A stretch of DNA of 64,000 bases from an uncultured Bacilli bacterium (GTDB lineage Bacteria > Bacillota_I > Bacilli_A > RF39 > UBA660). The stretch is taken from the NCBI GenBank assembly GCA_934096555.1, contig CAKOMD010000001.1, forward strand, positions 27,474 through 91,473, read 5' to 3'. A program made the position numbers and the translations under genes. The stretch's first letter is position 1. Each line of letters begins with the position of its first letter. The notes below the pieces were generated by a model, which did not search any database, was not told where the DNA came from, and saw only the letters and a program-made list of their open reading frames with translations. Shown here piece after piece: positions 59,720 to 62,818 of this stretch.

Positions 59720-61264
59720 TTACGCAATTAATTTGTACGGATTGCTCGAAGTTCCATCTCCTGACTCTATTGCTAGATCAGAGGCAAGATAAAGGACTGG
59801 ACGCACGCCATATATCGAACTATACGCATAGCTGCTATTCAAGTGGCCGGACGAATACACAGCGAACACATAGTACGCAATGCTGGAATTAGGGGTTAAA
59901 GTCCACTGAAAAGCACTATTAAATAACCAATCATTACTTTTACATGTTGAATTATCATAATTAACCAAAGTCTGTGTACATTTACTTAAATCTGCTGCAT
60001 AGCCATAATCACTTGGATATGCTAGTGCTATTTTACCTGTCCATTTTGTAGGTCTATTTGAATCTACTTTTGTTCCTCTTTCATATTCATAAATTTGATT
60101 AGAATATACAGAATAGCTATACCATCCACCAATATTCCAAGTCTCTTCTGATATTAGATTTCTTGTGGTATCATTTTTTATTCCTGCACTTGTAAAATCA
60201 CAATCTTTCGTAGCATTGTTTTGACCGCTATAACATTTGCCTGAGGCACTATTCCAATATAAACTCTGGCCTAATCCATTGTCATTAGAATCTATTGTAT
60301 AATAATCGCTTGAATTAAGTAACTTCATTAATCTTGCTGTCGTCCAATCGTTCTTACCAGTATTTGTTTCTGCTCCTGTACTGGTATTTTTATTATCCCA
60401 TGAATAGTTTCCAATAGATGTATTTCTTATTATTTTTACTTTACCATTAAACACACCTATTATTCGCCATAGTTCACATGTACTTGACGATTGGTTACTA
60501 TAATCAGAGCAATTAAAATATATATAATTATTAGGACTTGCCCCATAATAACGAATATTGCCACCACTTAGTCCATCATTCATTAATGATACTGAAGGGG
60601 CTGTATTATAAATAATACTATTATTTGTAACAGTTTCTTTTGCCGCATCCATATATACATTTGTTATAGTTTCTGCAGCAGTAAGTCTCTTTAACACTGC
60701 TCCTTCTCCATCAGCATGTAATTTAAAACTAAATGTTTTATTCATCATAGTATTTGGATTAGTATAATTCTCTCCATCTATCCATATGTATAATGTATAT
60801 GATGTCTTTGATGTAGATATACTTTCATTAGTTAATAATACTATATGATTAGTATTATTCTTAGTACAAGTAACTGTATTACTAGTTAGATAACTATCAC
60901 TAAAGTTTCCTTCTTTTACTTTGGTTGTACCTTTATATAATTCATATCTAAAACTTTTATCTTTTAATCCTGTATCTATACTAGTTATATCTAAATACAT
61001 ATTAAATACTAATCCTGCAGTATCTGCCTTTACACTTATATTCTTTATTATACCTTTACTTTTATCTGATACTGGTCTTAAATTAGCATTTATATCACTA
61101 CCTCCATTAAAGGTAACTGTAGCAGCTCCTACTCCTGCAACAATTTTTGTAGTATCACTATCACTAGTAGTCCATACATACCAAGCATAAGTTCCCCCAA
61201 CTATAGCTATTAATACTAAAAGTGATATACCAGTTATTAAAAATATTTTCTTTTTCTTATTCAT
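59720..61264 (-). CDS. DGR target (variable) protein: SipW-type-signal TasA-like N-domain fused to a C-terminal C-type-lectin-fold variable domain
   Basis: The N-terminus MNKKKKIFLITGISLLVLIAIVGGTYAWYVWTTSD is SipW-type. Residues 150-190 share the YIWIDG motif with the small paralogs upstream. The C-terminus ...TPNSSIAYYVFAVYSSGHLNSSYAYSSIYGVRPVLYL... is a CLec/DUF1566-like GVRPV end encoded by the VR. Confidence 0.8.
   Translation of the reverse strand: MNKKKKIFLITGISLLVLIAIVGGTYAWYVWTTSDSDTTKIVAGVGAATVTFNGGSDINANLRPVSDKSKGIIKNISVKADTAGLVFNMYLDITSIDTGLKDKSFRYELYKGTTKVKEGNFSDSYLTSNTVTCTKNNTNHIVLLTNESISTSKTSYTLYIWIDGENYTNPNTMMNKTFSFKLHADGEGAVLKRLTAAETITNVYMDAAKETVTNNSIIYNTAPSVSLMNDGLSGGNIRYYGASPNNYIYFNCSDYSNQSSSTCELWRIIGVFNGKVKIIRNTSIGNYSWDNKNTSTGAETNTGKNDWTTARLMKLLNSSDYYTIDSNDNGLGQSLYWNSASGKCYSGQNNATKDCDFTSAGIKNDTTRNLISEETWNIGGWYSYSVYSNQIYEYERGTKVDSNRPTKWTGKIALAYPSDYGYAADLSKCTQTLVNYDNSTCKSNDWLFNSAFQWTLTPNSSIAYYVFAVYSSGHLNSSYAYSSIYGVRPVLYLASDLAIESGDGTSSNPYKLIA
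59788..59896 (-). repeat. DGR variable repeat (VR) within the 3' end of the target gene
   Basis: It encodes TPNSSIAYYVFAVYSSGHLNSSYAYSSIYGVRPVL. Twelve TR Asn codons are replaced by I/Y/A/H/S codons. The 3' end is a conserved GC-rich GGCGTGCGTCCAG(T/C)CCTTTAT segment, which is IMH-like. Confidence 0.85.
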
Positions 61265-61269
61265 TACTT

Positions 61270-61700
61270 ATCACCACTTTCTATACTCATACTTATATTT
61301 CTTTTATATACACTAGATAATATATCATTAGAATTATCATTATTTACTAAACTACCATCTATCCATATATATACTGTTAACTGTTTTACTTCTTTATTTA
61401 TTTCTATATTATTATATATAGGTAAATTACCAGTACCATTACTTATAGTATAAGTATCTTTTAAGTTAACTTTAATTACCGAAGATAGTCTTCAGTATAA
61501 GTACTTGCTAAACTAAAATTAGCAGGATTACTATCACTACCTATATCTTGTCCTTTAACATAATTAACATCAAAACATTCACTAGTACCAGATATATTAA
61601 CCACTCCAGACCAAGATAACCAAGCATAAGTAATACTTACTGATACTATTATTATTAATAACCTCCTAATAACTACCAGTAATTTGTACTGTATCAGCAC
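61270..61700 (-). pseudogene. Frameshifted TasA-like paralog
   Basis: The ORF at 61476-61700 ends ...TYTEDYLR with a stop. The +1 frame then continues VIKVNLKDTYTISNGTGNLP...QLTVYIWIDGSLVNN..., which carries the family's YIWIDG motif. Joined, the product would be about 145 aa. Confidence 0.5.
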
Positions 61701-62217
61701 TTATTTTAGCAGTAAATCTATTATCATTAAGTGCTGTATTAATTAAATTAGCATCTAGCCATATATAAATATCAAATGTTGTATTTGTACTCTTAAGTAC
61801 ATATTTATCTACTATTGTAATAGGAGTACCTGCTACTGCAGTACTAAAATTACCACTCTTAGTATATACCGTAGTACCACCATTAGTACCAGTAACTTCC
61901 CACTTTAAAGCAGCAATATTAAGTCCTGTAATACTAGTAGGTGTAATATAAATATTAAATGCTGAAGGTACACTACCACTATTTATTTTAGCAGTCGCTA
62001 CTGAATGAAGTCCTCCTGACTTATCTTCTGATGGCATTAACTGAATACCAGTAATATTCTCTGTTATAGTATAATCAACATCCATCTTACCAGAATTATT
62101 ATTTACATTCCCTTCATTAGTTCTAGCAACAATATAAGCGTAACTAGCGGCCCCTATTACTATACAAAGTAACAGAACAAATACTATATATAACACTATC
62201 TTCTTTTTCTTATCCAT
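61666..62217 (-). CDS. Secreted TasA/camelysin-like protein (SipW-type signal), paralog of the DGR target N-domain
   Basis: The N-terminus is MDKKKKIVLYIVFVLLLCIVIGAASYAYIVARTNEG, and the C-terminus has FDIYIWLDANLINT. Confidence 0.55.
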   Translation of the reverse strand: MDKKKKIVLYIVFVLLLCIVIGAASYAYIVARTNEGNVNNNSGKMDVDYTITENITGIQLMPSEDKSGGLHSVATAKINSGSVPSAFNIYITPTSITGLNIAALKWEVTGTNGGTTVYTKSGNFSTAVAGTPITIVDKYVLKSTNTTFDIYIWLDANLINTALNDNRFTAKISADTVQITGSY

Positions 62218-62221
62218 AAAA

Positions 62222-62818
62222 TCACTGCTTTCTCATAATAGTATTTACTTTTAATAAGGCTGAAAACTTCTTATTCATAAGGTCATTTTGACTAACATCA
62301 GCTTTATTAGCTATCCAAACTCTAAAAGAGCATTGATAAGTAGTATTAATATTAAATGTACCAGCAATAGTACTCATATCACCAATAGAAACATTAGTAC
62401 CTGTAGTTATTGTAGTACCATCACCACTACCAATAGTTTTTTGACTATTATTACCATCAGTACAAATAAGACTATATTTAAAATCACTTACTTTTAAAGC
62501 ATCATCTATCTTAACATTAATTAATGAAACATTAACATAAGCATCATAACCACTTAATATAGTAGCATTAGGTGTTATAGAAAAAACATTAGCTTTAGCA
62601 TATTCAGTAACTTGAGCATCATCTAAAGGAACACCAGTTTTAACATTTACATAATTATTATCAGTAAATACTACTGAAATACCATTATTAATAGTACCTG
62701 TACCAACATTTATATCAGTAGAAGTAGCAGTATAGTAAGCATATGAACTACCCATCATAAAAACAAATATAGCACTAGCGGCAATTGTCAAAACAAAAAT
62801 CATTTTACTAAATTTCAT
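62222..62818 (-). CDS. Secreted TasA/camelysin-like protein (SipW-type signal), paralog
   Basis: MKFSKMIFVLTIAASAIFVFMMGSSYAYYTATSTD...FRVWIANKADVSQNDLMNKKFSALLKV. Confidence 0.55.
   Translation of the reverse strand: MKFSKMIFVLTIAASAIFVFMMGSSYAYYTATSTDINVGTGTINNGISVVFTDNNYVNVKTGVPLDDAQVTEYAKANVFSITPNATILSGYDAYVNVSLINVKIDDALKVSDFKYSLICTDGNNSQKTIGSGDGTTITTGTNVSIGDMSTIAGTFNINTTYQCSFRVWIANKADVSQNDLMNKKFSALLKVNTIMRKQ

Follow-up and report, generated by a model that had tools for sequence, protein, structure and literature searches.

What do the four tandem genes at positions 59720-62818 of the stretch studied here encode, and do they form a TasA-type fibre operon? The stretch, called the window below, comprises 64,000 nt of contig CAKOMD010000001.1 from an uncultured, RF39-like Bacilli bacterium. 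A preliminary description, made from the letters alone, had seen in these genes, here named g1 to g4 from upstream to downstream, SipW-dependent, TasA-like subunits, major and minor, of a fibre or matrix operon with a variable tip, of which only the largest is coupled to a diversity-generating retroelement (DGR) and one is frameshifted. The comparisons reported here confirm part of this picture and correct another part. The four genes share a module that, as far as sequence searches go, defines a large unannotated family in RF39-like gut Bacilli. The term "TasA-like" is supported in part, and it appears to hold for the export signals only.

Four paralogues in an operon-like array

The window has a G+C content of about 25% and reads cleanly with genetic code 11. 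As tandem open reading frames (ORFs) on the minus strand, g1, g2, a broken g3 and g4 lie 3' of a YebC/TACO1 gene (63047-63766). Gaps or overlaps within the array do not exceed 4 nt; the stop of g3 and the start of g4 overlap as TAATG, an arrangement read only at this junction of the window. A profile hidden Markov model (HMM) of the family was built exclusively from relatives outside the window and then scored on g1-g4. All four genes, found where the preliminary description had placed them, match this independent model: g1 with an E-value of 2.4e-11 (2.2e-5 for its mature part alone), g2 with 3.4e-28, the N-terminal domain of g4 with 2.6e-64 and the two pieces of g3 with 4e-9 and 2e-7. Together with the tight spacing these matches confirm, at the level of sequence, that g1-g4 are paralogues of one family in an operon-like array. 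A consensus scan gave a candidate promoter for g1-g4 (Table 1) and found no terminator-like site between g1 and g4.

The most divergent of the paralogues is g1. No assembly compared has a disrupted g1 or g2 (g1 is intact in the loci L003, L005, L007 and L062), and their ratios of nonsynonymous to synonymous substitution rates are mostly 0.25-0.45, versus 0.07-0.11 for YebC. Taken singly, the values are 0.25-0.45 for g2 and 0.42-0.88 for g1, the highest being that against the near-identical L007 copy.

Two motifs had been proposed as common to all four genes. For the N-terminal one, hydrophobic-G-x-[ST]-Y-A-[WY], this is true of the core [ST]-Y-A-[WY]; the full hydrophobic-G-x-[ST]-Y-A occurs only in g1 (GSSYAY) and g4 (GGTYAW), while g2 (GAASYAY) has its glycine displaced and g3 (SITYAW) has none. 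The second motif, YIW(I/L)D, is present in g2, g3 and g4 and absent from g1. It had been described as C-terminal, which is not the case in g4 (residues 159-163 of 514): the motif lies close to where the shared module of about 190 amino acids (aa) ends and is therefore internal there.

Export signal and signal peptidase

Over 114 members the N-terminus of the family shows a lysine-rich n-region, an h-region of about 20 residues and then a conserved motif, which reads G (59%), G (35%), T (87%), Y/F (80%), A (94%) before the putative cleavage site and W/Y/F (91%), F/Y/W (86%), x, W (89%), x, S/T (84%) behind it. Conservation thus runs past the site into the mature N-terminus. Position -1 is occupied by A, G or S and position -3 by T, S or A, each in 98% of the members, and glycine is found at -4/-5. 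As small residues at -1 and -3 together with this glycine are the classical signal-peptidase signature, we infer cleavage after T-Y-A, most likely by a type I signal peptidase.

At the equivalent place TasA has G-G-T-W-A followed by A-F-N-D. The resemblance of the signals noted in the preliminary description is therefore real (family G-G-T-Y/F-A before and W/Y-F/Y after the site, TasA G-G-T-W-A and A-F), and the column frequencies of the family agree with a SipW-type pattern, G-G-T-aromatic-A followed by x-aromatic. The assignment to the SipW type nevertheless failed with the model made for such signals: TIGR04088 gave no match at E<=1 for any protein of the window. Among 81 relatives, six match it, the best with E 0.021; P0137, P0205 and P0204 reach 12.9-14.6 bits, the cut-off being 19.

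In agreement with the preliminary description, the window yielded no ORF for a signal peptidase. An endoplasmic reticulum (ER)/archaeal-type (SipW) peptidase was found neither there nor in about 1.0 Mb from 61 related loci, searched by phmmer with a SipW query and by the SGSMxP motif at the level of these loci only. The S26 genes found in related loci are of the LepB type only, two of them beside rplS. LepB-type signal peptidase I is present in UMGS1185, which holds an orthologous locus, and in two more distantly related metagenome-assembled genomes (MAGs). The parsimonious reading of this gene content is that the housekeeping type I enzyme would do the cleavage.

An identity of g1-g4 as Tad pseudopilins was considered and rejected, as there is no class III signal. 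About 150 family N-termini show no conserved G/A at the junction of n- and h-region and no glutamate at +5, and their conservation lies after the helix. PF07811 matches only separate upstream TadE genes.

The mature module compared with TasA and camelysin

Membership of the TasA/camelysin family was not borne out: PF12389 gives no match at E<=1 for g1-g4. One of the 81 relatives matches (E 0.004); the g2-like P0205 scores 15.8 bits over residues 5-48 only, the gathering score being 22.5. Profiles of 114 family sequences and of 110 TasA-family proteins, the latter retrieved with a query 99% identical to real TasA, were also aligned with hhalign. At full length the two profiles match with P 2.4e-4, a match that extends over the signal and some 45 mature residues only, NL(R/K)P among them. 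With the mature parts only, the similarity is gone (P 0.22, probability 0.3%). Since the match vanishes without the signal peptides, the mature module is no detectable homologue of TasA/camelysin.

Monomer models were predicted with AlphaFold2. That of g2 (mean confidence score, pLDDT, 85.7) has a helix at residues 3-32, a disordered segment at 31-40 and a nine-strand beta-sandwich at 47-178, and the model of g4 (pLDDT 90.1) is alike in its N-terminal part, with helix, low-confidence but conserved linker (about residues 31-45) and nine-strand beta-sandwich. When compared with the PDB by Foldseek, the g2 model found nothing at E<=1e-3, and TasA is absent from its best 50 matches. With g4, the TasA fibre 8aur_A came second (E 6.6e-4, probability 1.0, template modelling (TM) score 0.37, root mean square deviation 14.9). 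Weak fold matches also extend to other donor-strand filament subunits, namely AbpA (7ueg, 3.5e-2), the Saci_0406 thread (3.6e-3) and CfaB (5e-3). A sequence profile search of the PDB with the family alignment yielded only weak leucine-rich repeat (LRR) matches, which stem from the C-terminus of one member.

The most conserved motif of the mature part is Y-I-W-I-D-G-N-x-x-N-P-x-x-M (D 93%, N 93%; in g4 at 60715-60785, about aa 160-183). It looks like a metal- or calcium-binding loop. For archaeal TasA-like filaments, an assembly that depends on calcium has been reported.

g4 is the target of a diversity-generating retroelement

In the PDB, the g4 model is matched best by the Thomasclavelia ramosa IgAse (9qa6, E 5.7e-9, 317 columns). 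The N-terminal domain of IgAse, about 290 residues long, has been described as an enlarged domain of the C-type-lectin-like kind (CTLD; PMC12237041). It is likely this domain that matches the C-terminal 310 residues or so of the g4 model, an assignment made from size because Foldseek gave no coordinates. There is also a weak DUF6273 match in this part of g4 (E 8e-4). The similarity to the IgAse CTLD, the DUF6273 match and the C-terminal position of the variable region (VR) together point to the standard fold of DGR targets.

Downstream (3') of g4 follows a complete DGR cassette consisting of the template region (TR), a 98-aa ORF, a 120-aa ORF, a bAvd-like gene and the reverse transcriptase (RT) gene (Table 1). 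VR and TR differ at 15 of 108 positions, and 13 of these 15 are adenines in the TR. Across the window and all fetched loci the TR of the window matches only the VR of g4, so that the coupling of the largest gene alone to the DGR, as it had been proposed, is correct. With its adenine-biased VR/TR pair, adjacent RT and Avd-type genes and a C-terminal VR in a CTLD-type fold, g4 has the features by which DGR targets are recognised. From its weak similarity to MutS, the 120-aa product may be an accessory factor acting alongside bAvd. A literature search returned no papers on DGRs together with TasA, nor on RF39 together with DGRs.

Between the RT gene and a CNNM/CBS gene lies a 347-aa, asparagine-rich ORF (55936-56979) which has no Pfam match and occupies the same position in L003, L005 and L062.

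g3 is an inherited pseudogene

DNA alignment with L005 and L003 placed three lesions in g3. A deletion of about 205 bp (junction ~61655/61656, between short TTATTA repeats) took out the g2-g3 spacer, the ribosome-binding site (RBS), the start codon and about 13 codons. A 1-nt deletion at ~61488/61489, by which GAAGGTTTA became GAAGA-CTA, gives rise to a TAA at 61478-61476. A third deletion removed 120 nt (40 codons) in frame, with its junction at 61431/61432. The first ORF thus ends ...TYTEDYLR-TAA and the coding sequence resumes in another frame, the frames overlapping within about 15 nt. Intact orthologues are P0060 (186 aa) and the 184-aa genes in L005 and L007. The frameshift itself, which had been noted before, is real; it is not of the +1 type, because the 1-nt deletion shifts what follows into the -1 frame, and it is one lesion of three.

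The possibility of an assembly error had been raised as well. L003, from an independent assembly and about 10% divergent, carries the three lesions too, and over the 436 nt of the g3 region two more ENA assemblies (L062 and L063) agree with the window at 100% identity. Recurrence in independent assemblies means that the lesions are inherited and do not stem from assembly; by this comparison g3 is a genuine, non-functional remnant. It is hardly credible that g3 functions through programmed ribosomal frameshifting or that the frameshift is a sequencing or assembly artefact. Both halves do still match the family HMM and their frames overlap closely, but the site has no slippery heptamer, the gene lacks its start codon and RBS, and 40 internal codons are missing compared with the intact orthologues. 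The absent slippery site and the two additional deletions led us to reject programmed frameshifting.

Two further observations concern the intact orthologues. The signal peptide of P0060 is nearly identical to that of g4, with one residue differing. In L005, the segment between g2 and g3 that is deleted in the window contains, at ~9243-9400, about ten consecutive G as well as an ORF of 47 aa that has a strong RBS. Such a run is striking at 25% G+C and would be a possible phase-variation tract.

A large family without a name

A profile search over 1.84 billion representative proteins yielded 4,542 family clusters at 50% identity with E<=1e-3, and 1,415 with E<=1e-10. No Pfam or NCBIfam model covers the shared module in the window proteins and 81 relatives scanned, and none of ten sampled members carries a name. 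There are two size classes, one of about 175-200 aa and one of about 450-650 aa or more. In the long members, the module is always N-terminal and an adhesin-type domain follows it. Such C-terminal partners, which are attached to the module in about half of the family, include LRR_5 and LRR_8 (BspA-type LRR), DUF285/PARCEL, Laminin_G_3, Flg_new (Listeria-Bacteroides repeats), Big_13, A2M and DUF6273. The hosts, judged from species-representative genomes, are uncultured gut "Bacilli" MAGs, "Tenericutes" UMGS1185 and Clostridium sp. CAG:302. Single genomes hold many copies, and one MAG has at least 13 family loci. About 15 related loci, L004-L020 among them, have a short gene (about 180-240 aa) placed directly upstream of a long one.

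An uncultured Bacillales MAG holds ten tandem family genes in a single array (L048, 2119-14940). It is composed of four alternating pairs of a long (460-746 aa) and a short gene (184-203 aa), followed by two long genes (588 and 509 aa).

Strain comparison and flanking genes

The true orthologous loci L005 and L007 consist of a Tad operon, YebC, g1, g2, an intact g3 and g4. In the genome studied here, too, YebC has a Tad/Flp-type pilus operon directly upstream, just past the window end, and 63842-64000 is the 3' end of the TadC-like gene of this operon. It encodes a 734-aa Cadherin-like protein, a TadE-like protein, a 129-aa ORF, a CpaE/ParA-like protein, the TadA/CpaF ATPase, TadB and TadC. 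This operon was found upstream of YebC-g1-g4 in every orthologous locus (for instance L003, 601-7429, and L062, 1553-8376), and was not found beside paralogous modules elsewhere.

The position of the DGR cassette differs among strains. In the MAG CAKOLH it adjoins a different pair of a short and a long gene (L008, 9806-14315, 85% identical to window positions 61443-57049), the TR of this MAG matches only the long gene of L008, and its YebC locus (L005, 11827-11997 compared) has no cassette. In L003 (11549-11921) the cassette is deleted with a partial TR left, and g4 is split into 192 and 325 aa. From this comparison the DGR cassette is mobile among paralogous modules, and its gain, loss or relocation is likely to proceed via recombination between paralogous pairs of short and long genes. 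Mosaic identities (g1 97.5% and g2 87.6% against L007, g1 89.6% and g2 94% against L003) suggest recombination within the operon as well.

Table 1. Coordinates of the features at the g1-g4 locus and its DGR cassette
Feature	Position	Strand	Remarks
Promoter-like site	62851-62879	-	TTGATA-17-TAATAT with extended TG, ~30 nt upstream of g1 start; consensus scan only
g1	62222-62818	-	198 aa; signal MKFSKMIFVLTIAASAIFVFMMGSSYA, then YY; RVWIA replaces YIWID
g2	61666-62217	-	183 aa; shared module and nothing else; signal MDKKKKIVLYIVFVLLLCIVIGAASYA, then YI
g3 pseudogene remnant	61267-61700	-	three lesions compared with intact 184-186-aa orthologues
g4	59720-61264	-	514 aa; shared module plus C-terminal domain
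g4 N-terminal shared module (~aa 1-190)	60695-61264	-	signal MNKKKKIFLITGISLLVLIAIVGGTYA, then WYVW; predicted beta-sandwich closing with YIWIDGENYTNPNTM motif
g4 C-terminal domain (~aa 207-514)	59720-60646	-	predicted enlarged C-type-lectin-like domain, carries VR; AlphaFold2 and Foldseek
DGR variable region (VR)	59789-59896	-	aa 457-492 of the 514 of g4
DGR template region (TR)	59467-59574	-	pairs with g4 VR
98-aa DGR-cassette ORF	58921-59217	-	no match; kept with cassette in L008 and L062
120-aa DGR accessory ORF	58566-58928	-	weak MutS domain I similarity (PF01624, E 0.0027, below cut-off); conserved with cassette
bAvd-like accessory protein	58231-58569	-	112 aa; PF22296 E 8e-8, 33 bits, below gathering score 40
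DGR reverse transcriptase	57192-58262	-	356 aa; RVT_1 E 2.7e-21

Comparison with known systems

With the tapA-sipW-tasA operon of Bacillus subtilis the locus has in common a Sec-type signal with the G-G-T-aromatic-A motif, conservation that reaches into the N-terminus of the mature protein, a mature domain made up mostly of beta-structure, an operon with several paralogues and the marginal Foldseek match to 8aur. The differences are that the mature domain of g1-g4 is without HMM or profile similarity to TasA, that sipW is missing from the operon and from all related loci examined, and that the mature N-terminus of the family reads W-F-x-W-S-S instead of A-F-N-D. Furthermore, the module is frequently fused to adhesin domains, as described above, and its hosts are uncultured gut Bacilli with reduced genomes.

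The matrix operon sipW-bsaA-bsaB-bsaC of Clostridium perfringens encodes remotely TasA-like paralogues and a larger protein with a binding domain; one paralogue polymerises (PMC7395162, PMC11580942), secretion of the matrix proteins depends on type IV pilus genes (PMC11580942), and BsaA is locked by an N35-K74-E56 isopeptide (PMC7395162, PMC11580942). Here, too, tandem paralogues go along with a larger binding protein and pilus genes are near, in the form of the Tad operon upstream of YebC-g1-g4, although this adjacency is not repeated at paralogous loci. Unlike the bsa operon, the array studied here has no sipW; the bsa operon has no DGR, and the g1-g4 family is without a conserved isopeptide triad.

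On the side of the retroelement, Bordetella phage Mtd and Treponema TvpA are DGR variable proteins with a C-type-lectin fold. As in these targets and in the CTLD of the T. ramosa IgAse, the domain of g4 is of the CTLD type, with its VR at the extreme C-terminus; the TR-to-VR mismatches are adenine-specific, and RT and bAvd are adjacent. What differs is the N-terminal partner, which in g4 is an uncharacterised module, whereas in the known targets this place is taken by the trimerisation domain of a phage tail fibre or by a lipoprotein anchor. DGR-diversified adhesins were reportedly described for Bacteroides type V pili by Macadangdang and colleagues in 2022. The concept is similar, in that a DGR diversifies a ligand-binding subunit encoded beside structural subunit genes. 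Structural fold and assembly pathway are unrelated to those presumed here, and the host is Gram-negative.

Possible function of the module

We favour, with a probability of roughly 0.55, the reading that g1-g4 encode secreted module proteins which are cleaved and associate via the conserved N-terminus of their mature form, and that g4 presents a lectin-like domain diversified by the DGR. They would be Sec-exported surface or extracellular proteins of RF39-like gut Bacilli. After the cut by a type I signal peptidase, the mature protein would start with the aromatic segment W/Y-F/Y-x-W-x-S/T-S/T, unstructured in the AlphaFold2 models, ahead of a beta-sandwich of about 150 residues ending in YIWIDGN..NP..M. 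In the short members (g1, g2 and the ancestral g3) the module is the whole protein, in the long ones the N-terminal base for a C-terminal binding domain. The shared module would hold the proteins together at the cell surface, the mature N-terminus of one perhaps pairing with the sandwich of its neighbour in analogy to TasA and BsaA. In such an assembly g1 and g2 would act as structural partners, and the variable ligand-binding subunit would be g4. This assembly step is plausible, and our confidence in it is lower than in the reading as a whole. Several observations speak against it. Many genomes have long members and no adjacent short one (L022-L037), which fits stand-alone adhesins better than obligate multi-subunit fibres. 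As g3 is dead while g4 is intact, the pairing of short and long proteins must be dispensable or have been taken over by g1/g2. The fold matches to filament subunits are all marginal (TM scores 0.27-0.37) and stand among generic beta-sandwich matches such as CBM32 and tailspikes, and an invariant Lys/Asn/Glu triad for isopeptide locking was not found in the family. We regard as doubtful a more far-reaching version, according to which the module would define a chaperone-free fibre or oligomer system of the surface that is new to science, analogous to TasA/BsaA yet with a mature domain in which no homology to them can be detected. In it, short members would polymerise via the aromatic strand and long ones cap or decorate the polymer with exchangeable adhesin domains, at this locus a DGR-programmable tip.

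Two other explanations compete with the favoured one, and we consider neither of them probable. The locus might be a true TasA/camelysin fibre operon, its ER/archaeal-type SipW encoded elsewhere and g4 being the DGR-diversified tip. The C. perfringens operon provides a precedent for several TasA-like paralogues together with a larger adhesin-type protein (PMC11580942), and the cleavage motif common to the family and TasA, the sub-threshold TIGR04088 and PF12389 scores of relatives, the full-length hhalign match and the Foldseek match of g4 to the TasA fibre all fit. Yet the hhalign match is lost once the signals are removed, the window proteins themselves match neither model, the g2 model does not retrieve TasA and that of g4 superimposes on it poorly, and the search of the window and about 1 Mb of related loci gave no SGSMxP-type peptidase, the only S26 enzymes found being of the LepB type. 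Alternatively, the N-terminal helix might be an uncleaved signal anchor. The proteins would then be tethered independently to the membrane, with the beta-sandwich as a stalk, TYAWFTW at the membrane interface and no fibre. Aromatic belts are typical of membrane interfaces, in the AlphaFold2 models a single helix (residues 3-32) runs through the motif without a break, many of the long members stand alone, and partners such as DUF285/PARCEL, BspA LRR and Gli349-like domains are typical of surface adhesins of wall-reduced Bacilli/Mollicutes. An anchor, however, has no need of the peptidase signature at -1, -3 and -4/-5 that nearly all members keep, and proteins of about 180 aa that consist of the module only have no obvious role as isolated anchored stalks.

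Conclusion

RF39-like Bacilli are common in the human gut, uncultured and reduced in their genomes. The locus described here reveals a very large family, so far without a Pfam or NCBIfam model, whose module forms the N-terminal base shared by many adhesin-type domains, one of them lectin-like and diversified by a DGR. Even a conservative reading leaves useful results: a newly defined domain family, the correction of a tempting "TasA" annotation, and a record of gain, loss and relocation of a DGR cassette among strains. If the module is indeed a device for assembly or display, it would explain how RF39-like Bacilli build and vary their surface, and g4 would represent a new class of DGR target architecture.

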